A DNA stretch of 60,213 nucleotides, counting the filler. It is 6 parts of 6 records of this genome, joined end to end, with 100 filler letters (N's around TTAATTAATTAA, not from the genome) between each part and the next. Parts side by side here need not be neighbours in the genome. Positions count along the whole stretch, not along the records: positions 36,424 to 49,816 come from SRR31147125_18363; 5 more parts are not named here. The stretch is one strand, 5' to 3'. The notes under the pieces are model-generated. The model was not told the origin of the DNA and did not search any database. It saw nothing but the letters and a program-made list of their open reading frames with translations. A program made the position numbers and the translations under genes. Below, in pieces: positions 7,244 to 49,916 of the stretch. Each line of letters starts with the position of its first letter. Within the stretch, counting starts at the first letter, position 1.

Positions 7244-7343
7244 NNNNNNNNNNNNNNNNNNNNNNNNNNNNNNNNNNNNNNNNNNNNTTAATTAATTAAN
7301 NNNNNNNNNNNNNNNNNNNNNNNNNNNNNNNNNNNNNNNNNNN
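7244..7343. other. Artificial contig linker
   Basis: N44-TTAATTAATTAA-N44, which places stops in all six frames. Confidence 0.98.
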
Positions 7344-13723: not shown

Positions 13724-13823
13724 NNNNNNNNNNNNNNNNNNNNNNNNNNNNNNNNNNNNNNNNNNNNTTAATTAATTAANNNNNNNNNNNNNNNNNNNNN
13801 NNNNNNNNNNNNNNNNNNNNNNN
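13724..13823. other. Artificial contig linker
   Basis: N44-TTAATTAATTAA-N44. Confidence 0.98.
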
Positions 13824-20062: not shown

Positions 20063-20162
20063 NNNNNNNNNNNNNNNNNNNNNNNNNNNNNNNNNNNNNN
20101 NNNNNNTTAATTAATTAANNNNNNNNNNNNNNNNNNNNNNNNNNNNNNNNNNNNNNNNNNNN
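20063..20162. other. Artificial contig linker
   Basis: N44-TTAATTAATTAA-N44. Confidence 0.98.
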
Positions 20163-21051: not shown

Positions 21052-22048
21052 TCAGGTTATGTTATTAAGCTCAATATTTATGACAACTTTTCCTCGGGCG
21101 TGTCCTTTTTCAAGATAGCGGATTGCTTCAGCAACCTCACCTAACGGGTAACGTCTATCTATAACAGGTACGATTTTGCCCGCTTCAAGAAGCTCTTTCA
21201 GGAAAACCAGGTCCTCTTTGTTTGCATTTGCCTCCCCCATGGGACCTATGTTCATACCCCCGGTTTTTGAAACCCATGATCCGATGAATGCATGTTGGAA
21301 AATAAGAGCCAGGGATGTAAATCCTATTATGACACAACGGCCATTGGGACTCAAGACACGTTTTAAATCCGCTACAGTACGATTTCCCACATTATCAATA
21401 ATCAGGTCATAGAGTTGCCCATCCCGGGTGAAATCTTTTTGCGTGTAATCAATGACCTGGTCTGCACCAATCGAGCGCACCATGTCCAGATTCCCTTGTG
21501 CTGCACACACCAGTCACTTCCGCTCCGAACGCTTTGGCAATCTGTACTGCAAACGTACCCACGCCACCAGACGCACCATTTATCAAAACCTTTTGTCCGG
21601 ATTGAACATGTCCTTTATCACGAAGACCTTGCAGGGCACTGACTGCCGCAGCAGGTACGGCTGCGGCTTCTTCGAATGTCGTACCGGCCGGTTTCAACAC
21701 CAGGTTTGCATTTTCAGGAACGCACACATACTCGGCAAAACCACCTAAACCAATCTTGTACAAGTCGCCGAATACCTCATCACCCGGCTGAAACTGCTTT
21801 ACGTTTACACCAACCGCATCGATCCGTCCCGCTATGTCAGATCCGAGTATCTTGTCCTTTGGTTTTAAAAGCCCGCGCCCAATGCGAGCCAGGAACGGCG
21901 TGCCTCTCAGGAAATGCCAGTCAAGTGGATTGACGGATGCGGCGTGAATTTTTATTTGTATTTCATTGTCTTTTGGGAAGGGTTTTTCAAATTCTTTTAA
22001 TTCAAGGACATCGGGTGAACCGTATTTTTGATAGACAATGGCTTTCAA
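21052..22048 (-). CDS. NAD(P)-dependent MDR oxidoreductase, paralogue 2, frameshifted near 21495
   Basis: ORFs 21449-22048 and 21052-21510 join into one full-length protein (VCSTR/NLDMVRSIGAD) if one G is removed. Confidence 0.85.
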
Positions 22049-23802: not shown

Positions 23803-25650
23803 GTGTGCCCGGCATGTCGTGTGTATGTTAAATTTACTATAATATACACTGATTATCCAGAGGGTGCAAGTCCCTTATGGGCGAGTTGGCAAAGCCCATT
23901 AGTAAGCCGCAAGGGCGTTCAGGGCGACCTGAAGTCTGAAGGAAGCGGGACTACAAGAGTCTGTACGGACGAACAGAAACTGCATACGAGGCATAGCTTT
24001 GTGGGTGAGCAACCACATCTTTGCAAAGCCCGTGGCCAACAAACTCAGCTATGTAGATGCAGCCGGGATAGACTCAAGGATAAGCGGCTTACCCGGGGAG
24101 ATCCCGACAGATATTTAGTTGGGAAGTCAGCCGAAGCCATAGTAGCCAAACGCCGGTGGTAATGCGCTGGACACGGTGAAGGGCTGAACATTAACCCGTT
24201 CCGGATTGATTTGGGATGAACATGGACGAATGGTAGACTCCAAGTCCTGCTCAAGCCCATTATAAGAAAGAACACAGTAAAGAAAGGAAGGCATGATAGC
24301 ACTAATCCTTTCCAAAGAAAACATGACACAAGCGTTCCACCAGGTGCGACGGAATCAAGGCGCCGCAGGAGTAGACGGCATATCGGTTAACGATTTGGCA
24401 TCTACTCTGCACCGGCGCTGGGATTCAATCAAACATCAGGTGGAGACAGGAAGTTACCAGCCCGATGCAATACTGGGCGTTGAAATACCCAAGCCAAACG
24501 GCAAGAAACGACTTTTGGGCATCCCAACAGTCGTTGATCGGGTATTACAACAGGCACTGCAACAACAGCTAAGCCCACTATTCGAGCCGGACTTCCAACA
24601 GCACAGTTATGGTTTTCGCCCCAATCGCAACGCCCATCAGGCAGTCCGGCAGGCATTGGAAAATATCAATGATGGTTATCAAGACATTGTTGATATTGAC
24701 CTGAAAAGCTTCTTCGATAAAGTCAGTCATGAACTTTTGATGACTTTGATCTATCGAAAAGTCAAATGCCCGCTCACCCTGAAACTGATTCGGAAATTCT
24801 TACGAGCTCCCATTTCCATAAACGGAAAGCTCGTGAAACGACGCAAAGGCGTTCCGCAAGGCAGTCCGCTCAGTCCGTTGCTGTCCAATATCATTTTAAA
24901 TGAACTGGACAAAGAACTGACCAAACGTGGACACCGCTATGTGCGTTACGCCGACGATTTCAGCATCTATCTGCGGAGCAAAACAGCAGCCAGACGAGTA
25001 GGGAACAGTATTTACCTGTTTCTCAAGAACCGACTGCGTCTGCCCATCAACCGTGAGAAAAGCGGAATCCGTCGTCCGAGCACGTTTTATCTGCTCGGTT
25101 ATGGTTTTGTGCCTGTGTTTCGCAAAGGCTCAAAAGGAAAGTATCAACTTGTGGTCGACCGAAAGGCCCTCAGGAAACTGAAAGCGCAAATCAAGTCCAT
25201 CACTCGTAAAACAATCCCTGCCAGCTTTGACGAACGCATCGCACGACTGAATCTTTTACAAACAGGGTGGATCAATTATTTCAAATTAGCCAACATGTAC
25301 GGCAAACTACGAGATATTGATGTTTGGACTCGCCGCCGCTTGCGTGGCTGCATCTGGCATGACTGGAAGAAGCCAAACCGTAAGATGAAGAATCTTATTC
25401 GGTTGGGAGTTCAACCAGGCATTGCTTACTCATGGAGCCGCACCCGAATGGGACGCTGGGCCGTTGCCTGCAGTCCAATTCTGAGCACAACAATTACAAA
25501 TGCCAGATTGGAACGCAGGGGCTATATTTCAATGCTATCGTATTACCTTAAACTAACTCATGGTTAATGAACCGCCGTGTACGAGACCCGTACGCATGGT
25601 GGTGTGAGAGGCGCACTCCAGTGGGTAACTGCTGGAGCCGCCTACTCGAT
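23803..25650 (+). mobile_element. Group IIC intron (attC-targeting type), 1848 nt
   Basis: 5' end GTGTGCCCGGCATG, GGGTGCAAGTCCC in domain I and an RT ORF. Domain V is GAACCGCCGTGTACGAGACCCGTACGCATGGTGGTGTGAGAGG with a CGC triad, and domain VI ends in CCTACTCGAT. Confidence 0.9.
24293..25567 (+). CDS. ltrA: Group II intron reverse transcriptase/maturase (no endonuclease domain)
   Basis: GAAGVDG, LGIPTVVDR, SYGFRP, DIDLKSFFD, GVPQGSPLSPLLSNI, YADD and a thumb region with GWINYF. Length 424 aa. Confidence 0.95.
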   Translation: MIALILSKENMTQAFHQVRRNQGAAGVDGISVNDLASTLHRRWDSIKHQVETGSYQPDAILGVEIPKPNGKKRLLGIPTVVDRVLQQALQQQLSPLFEPDFQQHSYGFRPNRNAHQAVRQALENINDGYQDIVDIDLKSFFDKVSHELLMTLIYRKVKCPLTLKLIRKFLRAPISINGKLVKRRKGVPQGSPLSPLLSNIILNELDKELTKRGHRYVRYADDFSIYLRSKTAARRVGNSIYLFLKNRLRLPINREKSGIRRPSTFYLLGYGFVPVFRKGSKGKYQLVVDRKALRKLKAQIKSITRKTIPASFDERIARLNLLQTGWINYFKLANMYGKLRDIDVWTRRRLRGCIWHDWKKPNRKMKNLIRLGVQPGIAYSWSRTRMGRWAVACSPILSTTITNARLERRGYISMLSYYLKLTHG

Positions 25651-36323: not shown

Positions 36324-36423
36324 NNNNNNNNNNNNNNNNNNNNNNNNNNNNNNNNNNNNNNNNNNNNTTAATTAATTAANNNNNNNNNNNNNNNNNNNNN
36401 NNNNNNNNNNNNNNNNNNNNNNN
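36324..36423. other. Artificial contig linker
   Basis: N44-TTAATTAATTAA-N44. Confidence 0.98.
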
Positions 36424-36451
36424 TTTGTGGGGGGAGTGAGGAGCTATCTTC

Positions 36452-37084
36452 ATGACAACCGAACGGCGTATGATCTCTCTGGGGCTGTCCGAGCAGCAGT
36501 TTCCAGAAGGTCAACATATCTGCTACATCTACAACGATGACACCGAACGTCTGCAAACCATGGCCAAGTATCTGAAGAGCGGTCAGGAAGCCAAAGAGAA
36601 GCTGCTCTACCTGGTCGATGCCATGACCACGGAAGAGATGGTCACCTACCTCGCAACCCAGGGCATTGATCTGGATCATGCAAAGCCCGGCAGTCTCAAC
36701 CTTTCTGAAGCCACCCCCGCCTATTGCCCCTCCGGCTTTTTCAAAACAGAAGAAATGCTCGACCTGGTGCGGGATTTTTACCTCGGAGCCTTGGACGAAG
36801 GCTATGCCGGAGCGCGCGGGACCGGAGAGATGAGTTGGTGCCTGTCTCAGGAGCAAACCCGCCACATCGACCTGATGGAGTATGAAGCCCGTCTGAACAA
36901 CCTGGTCAAAGACTACCCCTACACGGCGTGCTGACAGTACGATGCCCGTCAGTTTGACGGCCAGACAATTATGGATGTTCTCAATGTTCACCCGGCGATG
37001 ATCGTTAATGGTCAGATCGTAAAAAATCCCTATTACATCGACCCGGAAGAGTTTCTTGTGAAGTTAAGAAAGCGTCACGCATGA
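36452..37084 (+). CDS. MEDS (DcmR-type sensory) domain protein, predicted selenoprotein (UGA at 36932-36934), 210 aa
   Basis: GQHICYIY, RGTGEMSW and YEARLN motifs. The reading frame continues past UGA as QYDARQFDGQTIMDVLNVHP...NPYY and ends at a TGA overlapping the next ATG. Confidence 0.85.
36946..36960 (+). promoter_or_regulatory. SECIS-like hairpin of the MEDS gene
   Basis: CCGTCA-GTT-TGACGG, starting after an 11-nt spacer from the UGA. Confidence 0.7.
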
Positions 37085-40000
37085 CTCCCGGCGAACTTCA
37101 GACCCTCGGTCAATTTCTGCTGCTGCAAAACGCACTGCATATCGCGACCAACCCTCGCCAGATGGGTGAATTGGTCTGTGCGACACTGTCTGAAGTTCCG
37201 GGTATTCACTCCGTCGCAATCTACCTTGACCAGACAAAGGTCGCTCAAACCTACGGAACGGATGACTCTCTTTTCGACTGGCCGCATACAGCTCAGGTGA
37301 ATGACAGCTTCTTAACCGACGAATCCAACAGTATTTCTATCGTCCGCATTGAGAAAGGTCGAAACACGTTCGGCTTTATTGCTTATGTCTGCGGCTTGTC
37401 GATCGATTGCCAACCCTACCGCCCTCACATCGAAAATACCGCCCATATTTTTGCCCTGCTGCTGCAGAACAAGGAGCAGTCCGCACTGATTGAAGCGACG
37501 AACAGAAATCTTGAAGATCAAGTCGCAGAACGCTTTCGCTCATTGCAGCAAAGCGAAAACCGCCTACGTCTGGCTCAGAAAGCCGCGAAGTGCGGCCTCT
37601 GGGATTGGGACATCAAAAAGGATATTGTTTTTTTCAGCCGGGAATATTTCACCCTCGCCGGTTATGAGCCGGATGCGTTTCCGCACTCTTACAATGAGTG
37701 GAGATTACGTGTTCATCCCGACGATCTGGAAGAAACAGAACAGAGCATCAAAGACTATCTTACGGGAAAAGCGCCTAACTTTTCTGTCGAATTCCGTTTC
37801 AAAACATCCGACGGTGGTTGGGTGTGGCTTCTGTCCCAGGGAGAGATCACGGAACGTGATTCAGAGGGAAATCCCTTACATATCTGTGGTCTCCACATCG
37901 ATATCAGTGATAAAAAGAAATTTGAACAGCGGCTCATCGCCAACGAATACAAATACCGGACCCTTCTGGACAACCAGAACGATGCAATCTTCGTTCATAA
38001 ATTAGAACAAAAAGGATACAGCACCTTCACTGAAGTCAACCGGGAGGCGGTCGAACGCTACGGATACTCCCAAGAAGAGCTCTATCAGATGACCCCGGCT
38101 GACCTTTCATCAGCGGCCATCCAGCCCCCTCACCTGAACATCCGATGTCCAAGCTCAGAGAATCCGGGCAGGCCATTTTTGAATCGATTCATGTCAGTAA
38201 ATCGGGAGAACAGATCCCTGTCGAAGTCAGTGCACAACTGATTGATCTGGACAACGAAAAATACATTCTCGCTTCGGCAAGAGACCTGCGTGAACGGCTC
38301 AAAGCCCGGGAGGCACTCCATCGAGTCATTCAGGAGTGGCAGACGGCTATGGATGCCTTTGAGGACATCATTTACCTGCTTGATAACGACCGCTGTCTGG
38401 TTCGGGCAAACAAGGCATTTTACAAGGTCCTGAACGTCACACCGGAAGAAGCGAAAGGGCAACTGATCTCACAAATTATGCACCCGGACGGTGACGATAT
38501 GACCCGTGATGTTTGCCGCGCTCAGATCGAAAAGTACGACCTGGTCACCGTTCAGGAACCGAGTGACCCGAACAACCCGACGGGCAAACCGATCGAAATC
38601 TCGGTTAAAATCATCCGTGATGAGCAGGACAGGTCGACCGGGATTCTGATGACCCTGCATGACCTGACCCATACACGTCAGATTGAACAGCAGATCCGTG
38701 AAAGTGAAATTAAGTATCGCACGCTTGCAGACTACACCTACGACTGGGAGGCCTGGATCAGCCCTAAAGGGGAATACATTTATATTTCTCCTTCCTGCGA
38801 ACGCGTGACCGGCTACTCACGGGAAGAGTACATCGCCAATCCAGGTTTGCTGTTCGATATTATCCCCGAGGAGCACAAAAACTCTGTCGCCACTCATTAC
38901 GAAGAGAAAAATGCGAACAGGGATCCCTATCACGATATGATTTTCCCGATCATTCACAAAAATGGTGAGCAGCGCTGGATCGAGCATCACTGTACCGCTG
39001 TTTTTGATGAAAAAGGTCGCTACCTCGGCCGGCGGAACAACAATAGAGATATCACCATTCGCAAACTGGCCGAGGACAAACATCTGGAACTTGAAGAACA
39101 GCTTCGTCAGAAATACAAAATGGAAGCGATCGGCATCATGGCCGGCGGGATGGCCCACAACTTTAACAACAACCTCTCCATCATCCTTGGAAATATCGAG
39201 CTGTCAAAACTCAACAAAAATGATCGGGACGCCATCGATCGCTACCTGGATAACGCCAAGATAGCAGTCCTTCGATCACGTGACCTGATCAAGCAGATCA
39301 TGCTCTACAGCCGCCAGGAATCCCAAAAGAAAGAGCAGCAGAATGCGGTTGAAATCATCGACGAAACACTCAAGCTTTTAAGCGCGACCCTGCCAAGCAC
39401 CATCGAATTGTCCGCGGACATTTCGCCTTTGATGAAAGACAGCTATATTATTGCGGACGCATCTCAAGTTCAGGAATGCATCATCAACCTGTGTAACAAC
39501 GCCATGCAGGCCATGGACGAGAAAGGTCGTATTGTTCTGAAACTTGAGATCGCAACTTTGACAAGCCAGCAGATCCCGGCTCAGTTCAATGCGCTTCCCG
39601 GTGAATACATCGAAATCAGCATCTCGGACACCGGCTGCGGCATGACTCAGGACATCCTGGAAAAGATCTTTGATCTTTTCTATACAACCAAACCGGTCGG
39701 TCAGGGGACGGGTGTTGGTCTGTCCACGGTTCAGGGCATCGTCAAAGAACACCATGGTATCATCAAGGTCAAAAGTGTGCCTGATCACGGCTCCACGTTC
39801 AGTCTTTTCTTCCCGAAATCGGACCAGGCAGACCTCGGCCCTGACCAACCACTGGCTGAAGGAAAAAATATAAACCGTGAAGCACGCATTCTGTTTGTCG
39901 ATGACGATGCGATGATCTCAGATCTGGGCGTGCAGATCCTGACAGAAGTTGGATACGACGTCGTTTCAATGACGGACAGCTCTGCCGCACTCGAATTTTT

Positions 40001-40241
40001 CAAGGACAACGCTACCGACATCGACCTGGTCCTGACCGACCAGACCATGCCCGGGCTCACCGGCAAAGAGCTGATCCAGCAGATCAAAGTGATCCGCCCT
40101 GAGACCGCAACCATCCTCTGCACAGGCTACAGCAGTCAGGTCAACGAGGATGAGGCTGAAAAAATCGGCGTGGATGCCTACCTGGAAAAACCGATCGACT
40201 TCTCGACCCTGACAAAGGTCGTCAGAAACACTTTGCAATAG
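37081..40241 (+). CDS. Hybrid histidine kinase (GAF-like, several PAS, HisKA, HATPase, REC), frameshifted near 38130-38145
   Basis: ORFs 37081-38241 and 38145-40241 break within one PAS domain. Motifs: GLWDWD, VHPDD, AGGMAHNFNN, NLCNNA, DTGCG, GTGVGLS and DLVLTDQTMP. Confidence 0.88.
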
Positions 40242-40322
40242 TGTCCCCTGCTGCTACTCGGTACATTCGGCGGCTGTCAGCTACTCTTTTTTCATCTCGT
40301 ATTGATTCTTAAGCGGATGACT

Positions 40323-41966
40323 TCACTGACGATTTTCACAGACATGTCGACGCGCATGTTCAACCGTCTGATCCAGATCGTGAAAAATATGGTCAGGTCT
40401 CAAAATGGAGGCGATATCGAGGCGTAAAAGTTTTGCCTTGATATCTTCATTCACAACAACAAAAGGCATGATCTCTTTTTCTTTGAGTTTCAGAATGATC
40501 TCCGTCAAAGCAAAAAAGGCAGACAGATCGATAAATGGGACCTTGGTACAATCAAAGATGACAAGCTTCGTTCCGAGCATTTCGCCAACCTGCCCAACGA
40601 CCTGGGAGGTCGAACCGAAAAAAAACGGCCCGTCGATCCTAATAATGCGAATATGAAAACTGTCATCAAAGGTGTGATTTTGACACTCGTTGACGCCCTT
40701 GACCGGGACATCCAACTCACTGACTGACAACTGCATCAGCCGGGTGACCCTGATGGTCAACAGAATGGAAGCCAGAACGACGCCGACACCGACCGCCACG
40801 ATTAAATCAACAAAAACAGTCAGAAACAGAACTGCGACCATGACGGCAAGATCATGCTTCGGTGCTTTTCTCAGCAACTTTAAAAATCGGTAGTCAACAA
40901 TATCGAGGCCAACCTTCAGAAGAATGGCCGCAAGAACAGCCATAGGGACCATCGAAGCGTATGAACCAAGGCCCAGCAGGATCGCTAACAGAATGACGGC
41001 ATGCAATGCACCAGACAGGCGGCTGTTGCCACCCGATTTCACATTAACGACCGTACGCATGGTCGCACCGGCCCCGGGCAGCCCTCCAACGAAGGCAGAG
41101 AGAGCGTTCCCCAAGCCCTGACCAATCAATTCGCGATTCGGATTGTGGGTGGTTTTTGTCAAAGAATCAGCCACCAGTGAGGTCAGCAGACTGTCAATCG
41201 CTCCGAGAACTGCAAGGCTCAAAGCGGCAGAGACAATCAAAGACGCCTGTTCAATGCTGAAACTTGGCCAACTGACAGAAGGCAGACCTGATGGGATAGC
41301 ACCAATCGTTGGGACCTGAAACCCGAATACGCGCGTGATCGCGGTCACGAGCAGAAGTGCTATCAATGGTGTCGGAACGACCCGAGCGATCTTTTTAGGG
41401 GTCAAAAAAACGATCACCAAAGCTATCAGGCTAACGACAACAACATCCCACTGAATTGATGATCCCAGTTGCGCAAGTGCGACAACCGCCTGGAGGGGAG
41501 AGTTCATCCCCTCAACCCCAAACAGAGGATTGATTTGCAGCAGAATGATAATGATCCCGATCCCACTCATAAACCCTGAGATAACCGGATACGGAACATA
41601 TTTGACGAATTTTCCAACCCTCAAAAAGCCGAGCAGAATTTGAAATAGTCCCGTCAACAGCACTGCCGCCATCAGGAGCGTGATATCCCCGTGGAACAAA
41701 ACGAGCGTCGATGCGGCAACAATCGTCATCGGCCCGGTCGGACCAGATATCTGAATTTTTGTTCCACCACTGAGTGACGCGACAAAACCGAGAACAATAG
41801 CGCCATAAAGACCGGCCTGAGCGCCGGCACCGCTGGCCACACCAAAAGCCAGCGCCAGAGGCAGAGCGATGATACTCGCGGTCACACCGCCGAACAGATC
41901 TCCAACCAGTGATTGACATCCAGGTAACTTCATCCTGCCTTTTGGCTCTCTTTCTGTGGCAATCAT
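40323..41966 (-). CDS. SulP family inorganic anion transporter with STAS domain
   Basis: ALPLALAFG, QISGPTGP, RELIGQGLGN, GATMRT and DGPFFFG motifs. Confidence 0.93.
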   Translation of the reverse strand: MIATEREPKGRMKLPGCQSLVGDLFGGVTASIIALPLALAFGVASGAGAQAGLYGAIVLGFVASLSGGTKIQISGPTGPMTIVAASTLVLFHGDITLLMAAVLLTGLFQILLGFLRVGKFVKYVPYPVISGFMSGIGIIIILLQINPLFGVEGMNSPLQAVVALAQLGSSIQWDVVVVSLIALVIVFLTPKKIARVVPTPLIALLLVTAITRVFGFQVPTIGAIPSGLPSVSWPSFSIEQASLIVSAALSLAVLGAIDSLLTSLVADSLTKTTHNPNRELIGQGLGNALSAFVGGLPGAGATMRTVVNVKSGGNSRLSGALHAVILLAILLGLGSYASMVPMAVLAAILLKVGLDIVDYRFLKLLRKAPKHDLAVMVAVLFLTVFVDLIVAVGVGVVLASILLTIRVTRLMQLSVSELDVPVKGVNECQNHTFDDSFHIRIIRIDGPFFFGSTSQVVGQVGEMLGTKLVIFDCTKVPFIDLSAFFALTEIILKLKEKEIMPFVVVNEDIKAKLLRLDIASILRPDHIFHDLDQTVEHARRHVCENRQ

Positions 41967-42635
41967 CTATCCAAGGTAGCGGCTCTCAAGAGCCGAAATA
42001 TCGTCCGTAAGCTGCCTGCGGTTCAGTTGTTTTTGCAACAGAGTAAAGAAATCAGCCTCCATCAACAAACGTTGAAGCCTGGTTTTAACAATCAACCGTT
42101 CTGTTTTATTTGCAGCCAACAGCAGAATGACAAGATAGGTGTCGACCCCATCAATGGCTTTAAAATTCATGGGCTCTTCAAGGTAAGCAAAGATCAACTT
42201 TGTTGTGTCTATTTCATAGGACCCATCGAGCTCCGGGGTCAAAAAAGAAACGCCCTGCAACGATGATGAGATGATCGACTCTCGATAGAGAATATTTTTT
42301 TTGATGCCAAGCCCTTGCTCTGGCGACAACGCATCGAGCATACCGAGAACGTCGTCCAGCAGTTCATCACGGTCACTGCCATGAACCCGGTAGCTTATCA
42401 GGCCGTTGACCAAAGCATCGACAACACGGATCTGGCTATTAATAGGCATCTTCCCAGGTTCTGATGAACGAGAGGCCACAATCCATTTGTCAATTTTCTC
42501 GCTGTTAAACCGCCACTGTCCACCTATCTTGATCGCAAAAGGGATCATACCGTCCCCGAGCATGCGATAAACTGTCTTCTCGGACACCCCTAAACGAACG
42601 GATAGCTCTTTGACAGACAGGAAAGCCTTGTCCAT
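41967..42635 (-). CDS. Excisionase/MerR-like HTH fused to a PTS EIIA(Ntr)-like domain
   Basis: LSVKELSVRLGVSEKTVYRM...IPFAIKIGGQWRF, then EIIA-like RESIISS and FKAIDG. The likely start is MDKAF after GGAG. Confidence 0.8.
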   Translation of the reverse strand: MDKAFLSVKELSVRLGVSEKTVYRMLGDGMIPFAIKIGGQWRFNSEKIDKWIVASRSSEPGKMPINSQIRVVDALVNGLISYRVHGSDRDELLDDVLGMLDALSPEQGLGIKKNILYRESIISSSLQGVSFLTPELDGSYEIDTTKLIFAYLEEPMNFKAIDGVDTYLVILLLAANKTERLIVKTRLQRLLMEADFFTLLQKQLNRRQLTDDISALESRYLG

Positions 42636-42691
42636 ATTAGTCTCCATTTGTCCACTTTTGTCCATTCTAGTCTTTTGCAAATTGATGTCAA
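42628..42691 (-). promoter_or_regulatory. Sigma-70 promoter overlapped by five 10-bp-phased direct repeats
   Basis: TTGACA (42691-42686), 16-bp spacer, TAGAAT (42669-42664). TWGTCY occurs on the + strand at 42628, 42638, 42648, 42658 and 42668. Confidence 0.65.
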
Positions 42692-42886
42692 TAGCGATCG
42701 GCCAGCGGCCTGCCTGTAAAATGCCACAGCACAGTCTATTCTGATCATCAAGAGCGTTTTGATGTTTCGAGGAGAATCGGGCAAAAGAAAAAACGGAACG
42801 AACAATAAGGCGACGGACATTGACAATTATTAATTCTGGTATAGTATTTTTCTGATCTTTGATGATAAGAGAACACGAAGGAGAGA

Positions 42887-43204
42887 ATGATGATCATAAC
42901 CAACGTCAATACCGTCCCGGGCAAGAAAATCGTCGAACACTTCGGCATTGTTCAAGGGAGCACAGTACGCGCCAAGCATGTCGGCCGCGATTTCATGGCC
43001 AGTTTGAAAAATCTGGTTGGTGGCGAGCTGAAAGGCTATACCGAGCTGCTTCAGGATTCGCGTCAGGAAGCGATGAAACGGATGGAAGAGCAAGCCCGCC
43101 AGATGGGTGCCAATGCCGTTGTCAATATACGCTTTGCGACCTCGTCAGTGGCCCAGGGAGCAGCAGAACTGTTCGCCTACGGAACCGCTGTCCGCGTTGA
43201 ATAG
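42887..43204 (+). CDS. YbjQ/UPF0145 family protein
   Basis: GIVQGSTVRAKHVGRD...GGELKGY...GANAVVNIRF...YGTAV. Confidence 0.92.
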   Translation: MMIITNVNTVPGKKIVEHFGIVQGSTVRAKHVGRDFMASLKNLVGGELKGYTELLQDSRQEAMKRMEEQARQMGANAVVNIRFATSSVAQGAAELFAYGTAVRVE

Positions 43205-43212
43205 GAGCACTC

Positions 43213-43686
43213 ATGGACATTCTGCTTCATAATTTTGACCTGGTCATTTTTCTGCTGTTGATGACCCTCGGCTACAGCGCCGGCACCTGGGCTGAGAAAA
43301 AGCACTATCGCTCCATCAACAAGCGTGAGCAGGACCTGCTTGCGATTCCTGTTGTCACAGCTGAGGGCAGCTTCCCGGAGGGTCGTGTCGCCAACGCTGA
43401 GCTGGTTCAGGGCAGTGTCGTCATCTCGATCGATTACTTCAAACGCCTACTCGCTATCCTGCGCAATATTTTTGGTGGTCGGGTCAAATCCTACGAATCG
43501 CTGGTCGACCGGGCTCGTCGCGAAGCGATCCTGCGGATGAAAGAGCAGGCCGACGAAATGGGTGCTGGAATGATCATCAACATGCGCCTGGAAACCTCCA
43601 CCATCGGTCGCAGCGCCAACAAGAAAAAACGTGTCGGCAGCGTCGAAGCGATTGCCTACGGCACAGCAATCGTCAAGAATAGGTAA
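43213..43686 (+). CDS. Membrane-anchored YbjQ family protein
   Basis: N-terminal TM, then GSVVISIDYFKR, GGRVKSYE and AYGTA. Confidence 0.88.
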   Translation: MDILLHNFDLVIFLLLMTLGYSAGTWAEKKHYRSINKREQDLLAIPVVTAEGSFPEGRVANAELVQGSVVISIDYFKRLLAILRNIFGGRVKSYESLVDRARREAILRMKEQADEMGAGMIINMRLETSTIGRSANKKKRVGSVEAIAYGTAIVKNR

Positions 43687-44535
43687 ATGAAGTTCACTCC
43701 CAAAGCCTTGAGCGACAACGTCAACGTCTCCAAGACTCACCCGCTGGTTGAACTGGGTTGGCTGGTCGGGGGGCTCGTTCTGATCACAGGATGTGTGTTT
43801 TTTCTGCTCGGGGTGACAACCGACTGGGCCGCAAAGAAGACACCTGTCTCAGTGGAAAATTGGCTCGGGAACCTCGCTTTAAACGAGTTTCCAGCAGAGG
43901 AGAGTCCTGCCCTTCAAAAGAGGCTGGATAAACTTCTGGCCGTTGCTCCCGAAGAATCCCCCCTGCATGACTACGACTTCACCATATATCGGTCTGCAAC
44001 GGAGGATGTGAACGCCCTCGCTCTTCCCGGCGGGCGGATCGTTGTTTTTGACGGCCTGCTGAAGCAGATCGAATCGGAAAACGAATTGGCGATGATTCTG
44101 GCCCATGAACTGGGGCACTTTGCCCACCGTGACCATCTGCGCGGTCTCGGCCGTGGTCTTGGACTGGCGGTCGCGTCGATCCTGTTCCTAGGTGAAGGCA
44201 ATTCTGCCAGTGACCTGATTTCCAAATCGCTGTTGACCTTTCAGGTGAAGTACTCGCAGGATCAGGAATCGGCGGCGGATCGGTTCGGAGTTGACCTGCT
44301 CACGGCGCGCTACGGTCACGCAGGAGGCGCAACCACCTTCTTCGAACGCCTGTCTGAAGAGGCGGGGAGCAAAATCCCTTATGTTCTCGCATCACATCCT
44401 CACCCTGAAAATCGGATTGACGCATTGAACGAGCGGATAAACAATCATGCATACCCGGTTTTAAAAACCACGCCCATCCATCAAGACCTGACCTCTGAAA
44501 TGATCGAGAAAAAACCATCTCAAAACAAATCGTGA
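43687..44535 (+). CDS. M48 family metallopeptidase
   Basis: NALALPGG, AHELGH, YSQDQESAAD and SHP motifs. Confidence 0.92.
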   Translation: MKFTPKALSDNVNVSKTHPLVELGWLVGGLVLITGCVFFLLGVTTDWAAKKTPVSVENWLGNLALNEFPAEESPALQKRLDKLLAVAPEESPLHDYDFTIYRSATEDVNALALPGGRIVVFDGLLKQIESENELAMILAHELGHFAHRDHLRGLGRGLGLAVASILFLGEGNSASDLISKSLLTFQVKYSQDQESAADRFGVDLLTARYGHAGGATTFFERLSEEAGSKIPYVLASHPHPENRIDALNERINNHAYPVLKTTPIHQDLTSEMIEKKPSQNKS

Positions 44536-44608
44536 GCATCTTTGGACTTTTATTCCGCTGTTGCTGTGGTAACGTTAGTGCATCAGCTATCCCCGCAGGA
44601 GAGGTCCG

Positions 44609-45574
44609 ATGAAAAAAGTTCTGATCGGCTTGGTCATAACGATTGCTGTGATCGCCGTTGTTGCGGTGAACAACAAACCGAAACCGGAAGGGAAAATCTG
44701 GATCGGTGGCGGTCCGCAAGGGGGCGCTCTCGTTGTTTTTGCCGAAGGGCTGAAAGAGCTTCTCGAAGCGGAAGAAAAGAGTCTGGACGTCAACGTCATC
44801 GGCTCGGGCGGTTCGGTGGCGAACCTCGGAAGTATTGAGGCCGGCAAGCTGGATCTCGCCTGGGGTTATGCGACCGACATGTACCTCGGATATCAGGGGG
44901 AATTGGGCCCCGGGCAACCTCGTTTCGAAAACGCACTTGTCCTCGGACGGGTCTACGGCTCTTCCGCCCAACTGGTCGTCAATCAGGACAGCGTTATCAA
45001 ATCACCCTTCGACCTGATTAACAGAAGAATCGCCGTCGGTTGCTCCGGATCGGGGTCGGCTCACAGCGCTGAACGCTACTTCAAATCTCTGGGGATCTGG
45101 GACCAGATCATCCCGCTCTACATGGGCTATGATCTCGGTATTCAGGAGATGTACAAGGGAAGAGCTGAAGCTATCTGGCAACTGGCCAGTGTGCCGAGCC
45201 CTTCTCTGGCCGAATTAAGCAAAGATCATCCCGTGCGGATGTTGGGCCTGATTAAAGCTGCGGAGAAGCACCGCTTCTTTGAAGATTATCCCTTTTACAC
45301 CAGCATTGAAATCCCCGCTGGAACGTACAGCGGTATCGATGAAACAATCCACACCTATCAGGACAACACCCTTCTGGTCACCCACGCGGACGTTGACCCC
45401 GAACTGATCAAACTGACGTTAAAAGCCCTGTTCAGTCCGGCAGGGGTGCAGACACTGCGCGATCAGCATCTCATCGCCAAAGACTTCAGTATTGGCAGTG
45501 CGCTTCAGGGTGTACAAACGCCTCTCCACCCGGAAGCCGAACGCTTCTGGAAAAAACAGGGGCTTCTCAAATAG
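44609..45574 (+). CDS. TAXI family TRAP transporter solute receptor
   Basis: GGGPQGG, SGGSVANL, GSGS, IPAGTY and PLHPEA motifs. Confidence 0.88.
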   Translation: MKKVLIGLVITIAVIAVVAVNNKPKPEGKIWIGGGPQGGALVVFAEGLKELLEAEEKSLDVNVIGSGGSVANLGSIEAGKLDLAWGYATDMYLGYQGELGPGQPRFENALVLGRVYGSSAQLVVNQDSVIKSPFDLINRRIAVGCSGSGSAHSAERYFKSLGIWDQIIPLYMGYDLGIQEMYKGRAEAIWQLASVPSPSLAELSKDHPVRMLGLIKAAEKHRFFEDYPFYTSIEIPAGTYSGIDETIHTYQDNTLLVTHADVDPELIKLTLKALFSPAGVQTLRDQHLIAKDFSIGSALQGVQTPLHPEAERFWKKQGLLK

Positions 45575-45659
45575 CCCTTACTGAAAAATTGTCCAGCCCC
45601 CTTCCCTTCACATCTGTGGCACATGCTATAATCGGCTAAATCCAAAAGGAAGGAAAACC

Positions 45660-46074
45660 ATGAGACAATCGATTCGCACGTTTATTGTGGTGACAGCCCT
45701 TTTTGTCGTCCTGTTCGCAGGACAATCTCTGGCCGCAGGCATCAGCGATGTCAAGCGGATCACCGTTGACGAACTCGTCCAACTCCAGACCAGTGAAAAG
45801 GTTGTCGTGATCGACACCCGGGCTCCGAGCCAGTGGCTGTACCAAGGATAAAATCCCTGGAGCGATCCGGCTACCATCCTTCGACGCGCTCGACACCTTT
45901 AAGACCGAGGTTGCAACGGATCAGGCGATCGTTACCTACTGCACCTGACCGAACGAAGGCACCAGCGCCAGTTTGGCGCTGACGTTGATGGAGCAAGGCT
46001 ATCAACGCGTCTGGCCTCTGCTCGGAGGCTACGGAGCCTGGCAAAAAGCAGGCATGCCGCTGGAAGAAAAATAG
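45660..46074 (+). CDS. Exported rhodanese-like selenoprotein (YCT-U-PNE), frameshifted near 45845
   Basis: Signal peptide and VIDTR, then in a shifted frame DKIPGAIRL...IVTYCT-UGA(45946)-PNEGTSA...LLGGYGAW...PLEEK*. Confidence 0.8.
45963..45981 (+). promoter_or_regulatory. SECIS-like hairpin of the rhodanese gene
   Basis: CAGCGCCA-GTT-TGGCGCTG, starting after a 14-nt spacer from the UGA. Confidence 0.7.
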
Positions 46075-46170
46075 CCGACAAGGAAATCGTTTTTAAATGA
46101 TGTCAAACAGGTTATAATTCAACGATATGAAATGTAAACTCTGAATCGAAACTGACAAAGGAGAGACGTT

Positions 46171-46350
46171 ATGACCGAATGTAGCTGCGACAACCCGGAA
46201 GAACATTGTGACTTGCACGTATGCCAGTTAACCGCCAGCGAGCGGCACCCGGACATTGAGAAAATGTTCGAGAACCCACGCTACGCATGTACAAATTGCG
46301 GTGCCAAGGTTCATGATGCCCGCAACGTCTGCCGGCCGAAAGAGCTGTAA
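46171..46350 (+). CDS. Small Cys/His-rich protein, 59 aa
   Basis: RBS AAGGAG. Translation MTECSCDNPEEHCDLHVCQL...YACTNCGAKVHDARNVCRPKEL*. It is followed by a terminator and is below the ORF-track cutoff. Confidence 0.8.
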   Translation: MTECSCDNPEEHCDLHVCQLTASERHPDIEKMFENPRYACTNCGAKVHDARNVCRPKEL

Positions 46351-46374
46351 CAGACCAACGACATAAAACAGACA

Positions 46375-46405
46375 GAGGCCTCGGAGAATTCCGGGGCCTT
46401 TTATT
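46375..46405 (+). terminator. Intrinsic terminator
   Basis: GAGGCCTCGGA-GAAT-TCCGGGGCCTT followed by TTATTT. Confidence 0.7.
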
Positions 46406-46557
46406 TCGCTCCACTCACCAAAACAACGGGATTGGCCTCCAAAGCATCCATACGCTAAGAAAACTTAAAAGGATTGTTTTTCTTGGTGGCTTGGCGCTTT
46501 TGTGGCTCACAATTTGACGTTTTTTGGAGACATCTTCTTTTGGGTTATCGCTCCGTT

Positions 46558-47349
46558 TTATTTTGCCGGGGCGGGACAGGTCAGTCCTTCAAAATGTTCG
46601 CAGGCGACGGTCAGATGCTCAACCAGATAATTCTGTGCCTCAACGGACAAACCCAGTTGATCCAACTCACGCTGTAGATCTTCGAGTTCCCCGTAACAAC
46701 CCAAATAACCATTAAGTCTGGCTGCGGCGGTTGATGCCGCGAAACTCTCTTCACTCGGGAAACGCGTCCTGAAATCCTCAAATATTCTGTCAGTCTTACG
46801 CAGGTAGTACTTTTGGTGATAGTCTTCGGCCGGATAGAATGCCGTTGCTTTTTCAATGGGCGTATAAATTGTCCGTTTAAGCTTATCTTTGATCTGTGCG
46901 CGTGAGTGCTCGGCCGATCGCTTCTGTTGTTCCGACTGATAAAGAATGACATTGCGATACTGGCGTCCGAAAACTTCATAGGTCGGAGTGTGGCTGGCCC
47001 AGAACACGTCAAGGAGCTGCTCGTAGGAAACCACTTCAGGATCGTACTCCACCAGAACGGTCTCGGTATGATCCTTCATCTGCAGATAACTGGGGTCCGG
47101 CTCACGCCCGCCGGCATAGCCGGACAACGTCTTGTGAACACCCTGAATACTCCCGAACCGGGAGTCGATGCCCCAGAATCAGCCAAGGCCGAAAAGGGCG
47201 ATCTCCAGCGTCCCCGGTTCAACCCTGTCCAGCGGAGGACGCTCCATCAAAGAAGAGTCTGTGACCGCCAGGGCCGAACCGATAGCTAGAAAGCCCCCCC
47301 CGAGGACGACAATCAGCCCGATCAGTATATGCCTCAATGTCTGCGTCAT
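46558..47349 (-). CDS. msrA: Peptide methionine sulfoxide reductase A, selenocysteine form, with N-terminal signal/TM
   Basis: ALFGLG-UGA(47181-47179)-FWG replaces the catalytic GCFWG. GYAGG, DHTE and FYPAEDYHQKYY follow in the same frame. Confidence 0.9.
47149..47165 (-). promoter_or_regulatory. SECIS-like hairpin of msrA
   Basis: Minus-strand ACTCCCG-GTT-CGGGAGT, starting after a 13-nt spacer from the UGA. Confidence 0.72.
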
Positions 47350-47451
47350 AAAAAGATTGTCGCATTGTTGCTGCAAACAGAACAAGGGGTGTACGATAGA
47401 TTTCAATGAAGCAGTGATTGGAATATCAATCCTCGCCCTAAGGAGTCACCC

Positions 47452-48114
47452 ATGAAACACACAGTCATTACCGGAGCCAACCGGGGGATCGGTCTTGAGC
47501 TGGCAAAGCACTACCAGACGCATGGCTGGTCGGTCACAGGCGTCTGCCGCGAGACATCTCCGGAGCTGGAGCAGGTCGCAACCCGAGTCATCAGTGATAT
47601 TGATGTCACAGATGCGGAGGCCGTTCAACGGCTGGCAAAAGAGCTCAGCGGCCAGACGATTGACCTCCTGATCAACAACGCCGGCCTGCTGGAAGACAAC
47701 GTCCTCGGATCGATCGATTACGATTCCCTGCGCCTGCAGATGGAGATCAATGCTTACGCACCGTTAAGGATCTGTGAAGCGCTCCTGCCAAACCTGAAAA
47801 GCGGCAGCAAGATCGCCAACATCACCAGCCGGATGGGGTCGATTGCCGACAACGATTCAGGCGGACGCTATGGGTACCGGGCGTCAAAAGCCGCCTTCAA
47901 TGCCTTTGGCAAATCCCTCGCCGTCGATCTGCAACCACGGGGGGTTGCCGTTGCCCAACTCCACCCGGGGTATGTCAAGACACGGATGGTCAACTTTAGC
48001 GGGATTCTGACCACGGATGAGTCCGTGGCCGGCATGGTTGAACGGATCGAAGAATTAACCCTGGAAAACAGCGGTTCTTTCTGGCACACCAACGGTGAGG
48101 AACTGCCCTGGTAG
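47452..48114 (+). CDS. Short-chain dehydrogenase (CsgA/C-factor-like)
   Basis: TGANRGIG, INNAG, SRMGS, YRASK and HPGYVKT motifs. Confidence 0.92.
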   Translation: MKHTVITGANRGIGLELAKHYQTHGWSVTGVCRETSPELEQVATRVISDIDVTDAEAVQRLAKELSGQTIDLLINNAGLLEDNVLGSIDYDSLRLQMEINAYAPLRICEALLPNLKSGSKIANITSRMGSIADNDSGGRYGYRASKAAFNAFGKSLAVDLQPRGVAVAQLHPGYVKTRMVNFSGILTTDESVAGMVERIEELTLENSGSFWHTNGEELPW

Positions 48115-48138
48115 AAACTGACACAGATGGCCTCCCGT

Positions 48139-48170
48139 AAGCCTCAGCAGCCCCTGCTGAGGCTTTCTTC
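48139..48170 (+). terminator. Intrinsic terminator
   Basis: AAGCCTCAGCAG-CCC-CTGCTGAGGCTT followed by TCTTC. Confidence 0.65.
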
Positions 48171-48292
48171 TGCCCCACTCCTCGCTTCACTCCTAAATAC
48201 AGATTAAACATTTGATTTTCAGCGAAAAACTCTTAAAATTTCAAAATCACCATTGAATCTTATGACAGCTGACAGCGCGTGGAGGAAATGCC

Positions 48293-49573
48293 ATGGCACA
48301 CCACACTCTGAAATCCGGATATTCCCGTCTGGTTGATCGTCTCAATCGCTTTCCCCAAGGAGCCCCGCCTTCTGAGCTGCTTTACAAGATACTGGCGATG
48401 CTCTTCAGCGAGCGCGAAGCACAACTGGTCGCCCTGCTGCCGATCAAGCCCTTTACCATCGAAAAGGCAAGTCAAATCTGGAAATTGAACCGGATCGAAA
48501 CTCAGAACATTCTAGATGAATTAGCCGGACGGGCCATCCTTGTCGATATCGAGGAAGATGGTGAGCAGATCTATGTCCTGCCGCCCCCGATGGCCGGTTT
48601 TTTCGAGTTTTCCCTGATGCGGACGCGGGGCGATCTGGACCAGAAAGTCTTGAGTGAACTGTTCTATCAGTACATGAATGTCGAAGAGGACTTCATCCGT
48701 GCGCTTTTTACCCAGGGAGAAACGCAGCTAGGGCGTACTTTTGTCCATGAACCTGTATTGACCAATGAGGACGCCCTCCATGTCCTCGACTACGAACGGG
48801 CGACCGAGGTGATTAAAACCGCCAGCCATATCGGCGTCGGCACCTGCTACTGCCGTCACAAGATGTATCATGTCGGCAAAGCCTGCGACGCGCCGATGGA
48901 AAACTGCATGACCTTCAACACCTCGGCGGCATCCCTGATCAAACATGGTCATGCTCGTCAAATCGATACCGGCGAGTGCCTCGACCTGTTGCAGGAAGCG
49001 TACGACCATAACCTGGTTCAGTTCGGTGAAAACGTCCGCGAACGCGTCAATTTTATCTGTAACTGCTGCGGGTGCTGCTGTGAAGCAATGATCGCGGCAC
49101 GAAAGTTTGCCATTCTCAATCCGGTTCACACCACCAACTTCATCCCCGTGATCGATCAGGCCAACTGCACGGGATGTGGCCAGTGCGTCACCATCTGCCC
49201 GGTCGAAGCCATCGCTCTGGCCTCAGCCAACGATCCGCATAACCCGAAACGTAAGCACGCTACTCTGATCGAGGAGCGCTGCCTGGGATGCGGGCTCTGT
49301 GTACGCGGCTGCCCTATCGATGTGATCAAACTTGAAGCGCGTGAAGAGCGTGTCTTGACGCCATTGAACAGCGTGCACAAAGCGGTGGTCATGGCGGTCG
49401 AACGGGGGAAGCTGCAGAACCTGATCGTCGACAATCAGGCCCAGTTCAATCACCGGGCCCTGGCAGCAATTCTGGGGGCAATCTTGAAGTTGCCGCCGAT
49501 CAAACAGATCATGGCGACACAGCAGGTTAAATCCCGCTATCTGGAACGGTTGATTGAACGGATGGACAGCTAG
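48293..49573 (+). CDS. 4Fe-4S dicluster protein with N-terminal wHTH-like region
   Basis: CYCRH, ICNCCGCCC and two CxxCxxCxxxCP motifs. Confidence 0.88.
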   Translation: MAHHTLKSGYSRLVDRLNRFPQGAPPSELLYKILAMLFSEREAQLVALLPIKPFTIEKASQIWKLNRIETQNILDELAGRAILVDIEEDGEQIYVLPPPMAGFFEFSLMRTRGDLDQKVLSELFYQYMNVEEDFIRALFTQGETQLGRTFVHEPVLTNEDALHVLDYERATEVIKTASHIGVGTCYCRHKMYHVGKACDAPMENCMTFNTSAASLIKHGHARQIDTGECLDLLQEAYDHNLVQFGENVRERVNFICNCCGCCCEAMIAARKFAILNPVHTTNFIPVIDQANCTGCGQCVTICPVEAIALASANDPHNPKRKHATLIEERCLGCGLCVRGCPIDVIKLEAREERVLTPLNSVHKAVVMAVERGKLQNLIVDNQAQFNHRALAAILGAILKLPPIKQIMATQQVKSRYLERLIERMDS

Positions 49574-49596
49574 GTCTCTTTTCAGGCATTTCAAAC

Positions 49597-49675
49597 AGGT
49601 CGCGGGGTTACGCCCCCGCACGGCATGTTACTTTCTTGATATGCGTCAAGAGCGTAACCAAAGAAACGCACCCAG
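49597..49675. repeat. Probable MITE/REP-like intergenic element
   Basis: GCGGGG-TTACG-CCCCGC hairpin, then GTTACTTTCTTGA...TCAAGAGCGTAAC inverted repeat. Confidence 0.45.
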
Positions 49676-49716
49676 ATGCCTTGCGTTCTGACTACGGCAA
49701 ACGGGAAGGTTGAAGT

Positions 49717-49757
49717 CCCCCCTCACCCCAACCCTCTCCCGCAATGTGAAGAGGGAG
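49717..49757. repeat. REP-like CCCTCACCCCAACCCTCTCCC element
   Basis: Matches a widespread bacterial intergenic repeat with a CCCTCT...AGAGGG hairpin. Confidence 0.5.
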
Positions 49758-49816
49758 CAAAACACCGGAGCGAGTTTGTTGTTTTTGCTTTTCGCCCATG
49801 GGAGAAGCTCTGCTTC

Positions 49817-49916
49817 NNNNNNNNNNNNNNNNNNNNNNNNNNNNNNNNNNNNNNNNNNNNTTAATTAATTAANNNNNNNNNNNNNNNNNNNNNNNNNNNN
49901 NNNNNNNNNNNNNNNN
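49817..49916. other. Artificial contig linker
   Basis: N44-TTAATTAATTAA-N44. Confidence 0.98.

Follow-up and report, generated by a model that had tools for sequence, protein, structure and literature searches.

A putative selenocysteine-containing MEDS protein encoded directly upstream of a hybrid histidine kinase

The closest described counterpart of the locus considered here is the EtnR2/EtnR1 pair of Mycolicibacterium chubuense NBB4, in which a MEDS protein (EtnR2) and a GAF-containing regulator (EtnR1) are both needed for the response to ethylene oxide, an electrophile, according to the available portion of PMC11197473. Within a 60,213-nucleotide (nt) stretch of DNA, referred to as the window, a stand-alone MEDS gene (36452-37084) carries an in-frame UGA that very probably encodes selenocysteine (Sec), and is followed directly by a gene for a PAS-containing hybrid histidine kinase. 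The two systems (EtnR2/EtnR1 is locus L088) have in common a stand-alone MEDS gene lying directly upstream of that for a GAF-domain signaling protein, and EtnR2 retains H22, C24 and the Cys that aligns with U161 of the window protein. By comparison, EtnR2 is only 29% identical to it and possesses Cys rather than Sec, in a VC rather than a CC or CU motif; EtnR1, as described in the same portion of PMC11197473, is a CdaR/PucR-type DNA-binding activator, whereas the partner in the window is a PAS hybrid histidine kinase.

With the MEDS family as a whole (PF14417; DcmR; Anantharaman & Aravind 2005, as cited in the accessible part of PMC11197473) the window protein shares a full-length profile match and a predicted inactive KaiC/RecA-like fold. 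The RsbA-type MEDS-HATPase anti-sigma factors (NCBIfam NF041045) resemble the window module in associating MEDS with GHKL kinases, but here MEDS is not fused to its partner, and the RsbA-type model gives it 48 bits against a cut-off of 210. A parallel for the residue itself is provided by SaoL, SaoB, SaoC and HgcA, in which CU replaces CC, as in MEDS, and the Sec insertion sequence (SECIS) lies inside the coding region; these are enzymes or transport proteins tied to organometallic chemistry, whereas MEDS is a domain of the sensor type and belongs to a two-component system. As presented in the part of Haft & Gwadz 2022 (bioRxiv 10.1101/2022.07.06.499078) that was accessible, the CU motif is rare, and its known cases are listed without MEDS.

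We regard the MEDS locus as a genuine and new Sec version of a module that is known but has been little studied. Taken as a whole it is best explained, with a probability of about 70%, as a two-gene signaling module made up of Sec-MEDS and a cognate hybrid kinase. The elements of the MEDS gene are as follows.

36424..36451, + strand: 5′ leader preceding the MEDS ORF; its Shine-Dalgarno (SD) sequence, GGAGTGAGGAG, is strong (SD duplex -8.5 kcal/mol)
36452..37084, + strand: stand-alone MEDS-domain gene, 210 residues including putative Sec161, final stop TGA (translated with TGA as U)
36932..36934, + strand: in-frame UGA, codon 161, giving the C160-U161 "CU" motif (from the homologue alignment; TGA conserved in 13 other loci)
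36944..36960, + strand: SECIS-like hairpin whose stem, CCGUC(A)/(U)GACGG, begins 11 nt past the UGA and carries the loop (A)GUU(U)

The MEDS gene and its UGA codon

The open reading frame (ORF) starts at ATG 36452, meets a TGA at 36932-36934 (codon 161) and, after read-through, ends at TGA 37082-37084. Its product matches Pfam PF14417 with 140.4 bits (gathering cut-off 29.8; E 6e-41) over residues 22-181 and profile positions 2-161 of 161, a match that spans the TGA; NCBIfam holds no specific model for it. The AlphaFold model (predicted local distance difference test, pLDDT, 94.5) has as its best Foldseek matches FlaH, KaiC and RecA (PDB 4yds, 7s65 and 2w0m; E ~1e-6, template modeling score, TM, ~0.6), indicating a KaiC/FlaH/RecA-like fold. 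Although the core fold is common to these proteins, identity to them is only 11-17%, and a Walker A motif ([AG]xxxxGK[ST]) is absent from the MEDS sequence. A sequence search of the PDB with the MEDS profile gave chance-level matches only (E at least 0.06). The model thus depicts MEDS as a KaiC/RecA-like fold without a P-loop, predicted to be inactive and not an ATPase of the KaiC/FlaH/RecA kind.

Homologues were taken as the best 120 of 333 matches. Exactly before codon 161, 36 of these 120 stop; in all 84 full-length ones column 161 is Cys, within the sequence CCQYD. The 35 short homologues of 154-160 residues share the ending ...AC, which in 34 cases is ...YTAC, and P0072 ends at the same place. 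At the DNA level the comparison covered 33 genome loci, those left of 43 after exclusion of the 10 most distant, and 35 metagenome loci. Codon 161 is TGA in 3/33 genome and 10/35 metagenome loci and a Cys codon (TGC/TGT) in 30/33 and 23/35, respectively; two metagenome loci were unreadable at this point. Across 12 distinct TGA loci, whose median nucleotide identity is 68%, the 44 codons past the UGA contain no stops, have a median amino acid identity of 77%, and show 15, 11 and 38 variable sites at first, second and third codon positions.

Bacterial SECIS elements, on the model of E. coli fdhF, are stem-loops situated shortly past the UGA with G/U in the apical loop. The sequence GCCCGUCAGUU(U/C)GACGG, with a stem of 5-6 base pairs and a G/U-containing loop, is present in 14/14 TGA loci and in none of the 12 Cys loci shown; at this position the Cys forms encode Arg-Arg, as opposed to Arg-Gln in the TGA loci. 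Over 12 distinct loci the hairpin is invariant save for one U/C, four frozen synonymous third positions included, and in the window it is folded in the minimum free energy structure. It sits where a bacterial SECIS is expected, and from its sequence we describe it as SECIS-like and putative.

Genomes of relatives were searched for two components of the decoding machinery: tRNA-Sec (anticodon TCA) and SelB were found above cut-off in two of three. A tree built on the first 159 residues holds 120 rows, a further row having been dropped from the original 121 as too short; in it all 37 TGA rows fall in one clade of 39, with a Shimodaira-Hasegawa-like approximate likelihood-ratio (SH-aLRT) support of 99; by this phylogeny the Sec form of MEDS is a single clade. 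Two Cys-form rows are nested in this otherwise all-Sec clade and could represent a Sec-to-Cys reversion. A genetic code in which TGA is a sense codon was considered and rejected, TGA terminating 3/10 genes of the contig, the MEDS gene included.

The TGA is read as Sec because 36 of the 120 homologues stop there while the other 84 have Cys, the hairpin occurs in 14/14 TGA loci, two of three relatives possess tRNA-Sec and SelB, and a Sec-MsrA gene is located on the same contig. On this comparative evidence we are confident that the gene most probably encodes a genuine selenoprotein.

The partner kinase and the gene junction

The MEDS stop codon overlaps the start codon of the kinase, which in the assembled sequence occupies two reading frames:

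37081..37084, + strand: ATGA overlap of MEDS stop and kinase start
37081..37575, + strand: GAF-like N-terminal domain plus long signaling helix, the candidate MEDS-docking domain
37081..38241, + strand: kinase first reading frame, 386 codons (GAF-like domain, PAS_3, start of the second PAS)
38103..38145, + strand: stretch of the second PAS in which the frame shifts by -1; a C5 run lies at 38125-38129
38145..40241, + strand: kinase second reading frame, 698 codons from its first ATG, open from 38103 (rest of PAS, PAS_9, PAS_3/4, HisKA, HATPase_c, receiver)

Pfam recognizes PAS domains, HisKA, HATPase_c and Response_reg in the kinase, all above cut-off except HisKA (21.9 versus 26.9 bits), and the second frame has NCBIfam hybrid-kinase matches; the H-box, ATP-lid and receiver motifs are intact. 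The first ~160 residues have no Pfam match. Their model (pLDDT 91.9) reveals a GAF-like fold followed by a long helix, and the top-ranking PDB matches are GAF domains without exception (E from 4e-4, TM 0.44-0.62). ATG 37081 is backed as the true start by an alignment of 35 kinases, in which 34 homologues align from the first residues. In the closest metagenome relative (L044:2241-2669, 74% identity) an in-frame stop follows the kinase GAF-like domain, near the contig end (...LNK*LEARVK).

The earlier note on this DNA had taken the UGA in MEDS to be Sec and the two genes to be one module. The former is borne out by the stops of the homologues, the Cys column, the hairpin and the coding constraint past the UGA, and the latter by synteny: in 27/33 genome loci a large ORF begins at -26 to +39 nt relative to the MEDS stop, and of 43 downstream proteins scanned 34 contain HATPase_c, 32 PAS and 23 a receiver, with GGDEF or EAL instead in 3-4. 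The partner kinases have their first ~160 residues in common; this region is GAF-like, lacks a Pfam match and aligns from residue 1. Among 10 Sec loci there is no further conserved neighbor, save in one closely related pair. Judged by gene order, the pairing of a stand-alone MEDS gene with a gene directly behind it for a kinase with a GAF-like N-terminus is conserved as a two-gene module in many phyla.

MEDS genes also reside on plasmids of known alkene/epoxide degraders, Xanthobacter autotrophicus Py2 (L090) and Nocardioides sp. JS614 (L089). The JS614 gene is followed by one for a helix-turn-helix (HTH) protein like EtnR1, while the Py2 copy adjoins a GntR regulator and B12-binding/CoA-ligase genes.

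Two statements of the earlier note about the junction were found to be accurate: the MEDS stop (TGA 37082-37084) overlaps the kinase ATG at 37081 as ATGA only past the read-through, and no strong ribosome-binding site precedes the kinase, its SD pairing amounting to -1.4 kcal/mol versus -8.5 kcal/mol at the MEDS start. ATGA overlaps are a common type of operon junction. The distance between UGA161 and the kinase AUG is 147 nt. Junctions were compared across 11 Sec and 34 Cys loci with placeable kinase starts; L005, L026, L028, L055-57, L066, L068 and L069 were left out for ambiguous starts, as was L044.

Sec junctions, 11 loci: -8 to +10 nt in 11/11; four overlaps of -4; median SD -4.3 kcal/mol
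Cys junctions, 34 loci: -8 to +10 nt in 32/34; eight overlaps of -4; median SD -3.8 kcal/mol

Some of the Sec loci have gaps of +2 to +10 nt with better SDs. Since Sec and Cys loci are alike in their junctions and in SD strength, a close junction combined with a weak ribosome-binding site is, on this comparison, a trait of the family and not a selenium-specific design. It is plausible that translation of the kinase depends on selenium, as a consequence of this architecture and not as a Sec-specific adaptation. A related case is fdhFSec of Treponema primitia, where, in the portion of PMC3892789 available, selenium controls expression past the Sec codon by a translation-coupled mechanism. There, as is proposed here, an undecoded Sec UGA lowers downstream expression; but in fdhFSec it is transcription elongation inside the selenoprotein gene, which was measured, whereas the window presents a separate cistron for a regulatory kinase.

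The sensing residue and rival explanations

One question raised by the locus is what the Sec residue does. We propose that the stand-alone MEDS protein carries Sec at the position of the invariant cysteine of the family (C160-U161), and that the gene directly after it encodes its cognate kinase, a soluble hybrid protein with a GAF-like domain, four PAS domains, HisKA, HATPase and a receiver. MEDS would dock on the GAF-like domain, and the chemical state of residue 161 (oxidized, alkylated or metal-bound) would alter the output of the kinase; selenium presumably makes this residue a stronger nucleophile than it is in the Cys forms. The tight junction and weak ribosome-binding site would couple translation of the two genes, as in the Cys forms, and at low selenium the levels of both proteins would drop as a by-product of the gene arrangement, not through an evolved selenium gate. 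We hypothesize that residue 161 may sense an oxidant, an electrophile or a metal, on the basis of the invariance of the Cys, which includes the epoxide-responsive EtnR2, and the replacement of a reactive Cys by Sec.

The residues H22, C24, C92, C160 and C161 are invariant or nearly so in the MEDS subfamily, with C160 replaced by V, I or F in some homologues. General across EtnR2 and its relatives are only His22, Cys24 and Cys161; C92 and C160 are not kept. Because Sec nearly always stands in for a chemically active Cys, the Sec/Cys pair marks residue 161, along with H22 and C24, as the likely working site of MEDS. A more specific proposal is that the invariant Cys/Sec is a covalent switch for electrophiles or oxidants which reports to GAF partners, and that in the Sec clade the UGA makes both sensor and kinase dependent on selenium through coupling or polarity. 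This is hinted at because EtnR2 is responsive to epoxide and DcmR to dichloromethane, and we rate it as unlikely; if true, it would be the first case of a selenoprotein serving a two-component system as its input element. To our knowledge, the bacterial selenoproteins catalogued so far are nearly all redox enzymes or proteins that handle metals, and Sec in a sensor module would extend the use of selenium to signal input.

No publication joining MEDS or DcmR with selenocysteine or selenoproteins was found in our literature search, which did not take in supplementary family tables, where the family could be listed. The terms MEDS, DcmR, "sensory" and "histidine kinase" have no occurrences in the main texts of a 2026 review (PMC13188914) and of the BSepDB (PMC13326102) and deep-Sep (PMC12013277) papers, and PF14417 and KaiC have none in the main text of the review, the only one searched for them. 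In the accessible part of Haft & Gwadz 2022 (bioRxiv 10.1101/2022.07.06.499078) MEDS, histidine kinase, sensor and PF14417 are likewise not mentioned.

Several results weigh against the interpretation of the locus as a working Sec-MEDS-kinase module. The hairpin stem never varies and is consequently without covariation support, and the local 65-nt fold is no more stable than its shuffles (z -0.47). The third relative's genome (2.0 Mb) contains neither tRNA-Sec nor SelB above cut-off. A stem predicted to sequester the kinase AUG is not significant either (z -1.43; 16/200 shuffles fold as well). Finally, the kinase of 37081-40241 is not one open frame, frame 1 ending at 38241 and the remainder lying in the -1 frame. 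The earlier note had described a multi-PAS hybrid kinase running to 40241, and this must be amended: the PAS, HisKA, HATPase_c and receiver domains are all present, but they are distributed over two frames, with a -1 change near the C5 run. Searches (tblastn) with homologues follow frame 1 up to ~38109-38127 and frame 3 (-1) from ~38109-38145, while the related kinases (L001, L004 and others) are single ORFs. Programmed -1 frameshifting was rejected, since the homologous kinases are single ORFs. In a DNA search of 201 genomes of the order to which G001 belongs only G001 matched the MEDS gene, leaving no near-identical genome in which to check the frameshift. A zinc-binding alcohol dehydrogenase gene elsewhere in the window (21052-22048, - strand) is split into two overlapping ORFs, its ADH_zinc_N domain being cut at profile position 25, and constitutes a second frameshift in the window. 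This second split gene suggests indel errors of assembly. At the level of reads, contigs from the single DNA data set listed matched just two short, dissimilar pieces of the stretch (2 of 30 bins), and no RNA data set was listed. We attribute the frame change in the kinase to an error of assembly or to a recent lesion in the strain, and lean toward an assembly indel.

Were the frameshift real, the pair might be a decaying remnant and the module dead in this organism. As assembled, the kinase does lie in two frames, and the single ORFs of its homologues leave no room for a conserved programmed shift. On the other hand, the H-box, ATP-lid and receiver motifs are intact and score well, the switch zone contains a C5 homopolymer, the alcohol dehydrogenase gene of the window is likewise interrupted inside a domain, and the MEDS gene, its UGA and the hairpin are undamaged; decay is a possibility to be kept in mind, with the odds against it. 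A different objection is that the TGA is a genuine stop, or else a mutation or sequencing error, and that the protein ends at 160 residues. Public annotation does stop these genes at 160 residues and lists such forms as complete, for example under the metagenome-assembled genome entry "MEDS domain-containing protein." That a TGA occurs at the same codon in 14 loci, at a median nucleotide identity of only 68%, that the 44 codons beyond it are conserved in frame with an excess of third-position changes, that the downstream hairpin is frozen, and that truncation at 160 residues would remove the final core strand and the C-terminal helices from the predicted fold make this explanation scarcely credible. 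If the UGA is indeed decoded as Sec, a practical consequence is that database records of Sec-MEDS genes end prematurely, at 160 residues.

The remaining alternatives accept the Sec residue and concern its role. The arrangement could be a selenium-gated design, in which the kinase is translated only by ribosomes that have decoded UGA161 as Sec and terminated at the ATGA, with selenium as the evolved input. This would fit the ATGA overlap and the very weak SD of the window (-1.4 kcal/mol), the 147 nt from UGA161 to the AUG, the position of 11/11 Sec junctions between -8 and +10 nt, and the Treponema primitia case of fdhFSec (PMC3892789, as far as available). The 34 Cys loci, however, have the same junction types and SD strengths (32/34 within -8 to +10 nt; medians of -3.8 versus -4.3 kcal/mol), the Sec loci L002, L048 and L049 are non-overlapping with moderate SDs of -5.7 to -6.4 kcal/mol, and the fold predicted for the RNA at the AUG does not stand out from shuffles; we consider such a gate improbable. 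Residue 161 could, instead, be a ligand of a metal or cofactor, with H22, C24, C92, C160 and U161 forming a metal or Fe-S site tuned by selenium. In RecA-type sheets strand 1 neighbors strand 5; on this topology and the modeled secondary structure, strand 1 (residues 22-27) would lie beside strand 5 (158-164), and all five positions are invariant or nearly so in the subfamily. In SaoL, SaoB and HgcA, moreover, CC/CU motifs have been interpreted as marks of heavy-metal binding (accessible part of Haft & Gwadz 2022). Against this stand the loss of C92 and C160 in EtnR2 and its relatives, the presence of V, I or F in place of C160 in some homologues, and the lack of a match to any metal-binding family in Pfam or NCBIfam; a metal site is conceivable but doubtful. 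The two-gene module, with residue 161 as its probable working site, remains the explanation we prefer.

The remainder of the window

At least six contigs make up the window, with linkers between them:

7244-7343, 13724-13823, 20063-20162, 36324-36423 and 49817-49916: N44-TTAATTAATTAA-N44 linkers

Gene order across the linkers is not real synteny, because the window consists of concatenated contigs. The MEDS-kinase contig is the piece 36424-49816; it begins directly behind a linker, so the DNA upstream of 36424 is unrelated. Rfam returned pieces of a group II intron only over the window, with no match at the MEDS-kinase locus, and no tRNA is present in the window. Three further features were recorded:

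23918-24184, + strand: group II intron domains D1-D4 (Rfam RF02001, 117.7 bits; RF01998, 39 bits)
40323-42680, - strand: SulP-family permease with STAS domain, directly downstream of a gene for an HTH_17 plus PTS-EIIA2 protein and convergent with the kinase
46558-47349, - strand: MsrA gene with an in-frame TGA at 47179-47181, in the catalytic GUFWG motif

The intron domains are followed by an ORF of 424 codons (24293-25567, + strand). The SulP permease and HTH_17 plus PTS-EIIA2 genes have no tie to the MEDS module in related loci. The MsrA protein matches TIGR00401 (msrA; 132 bits versus a cut-off of 108) as well as the Pfam "selenoprotein MsrA helical domain," and has a hydrophobic N-terminus; this Sec-MsrA on the MEDS contig is a known kind of selenoprotein.

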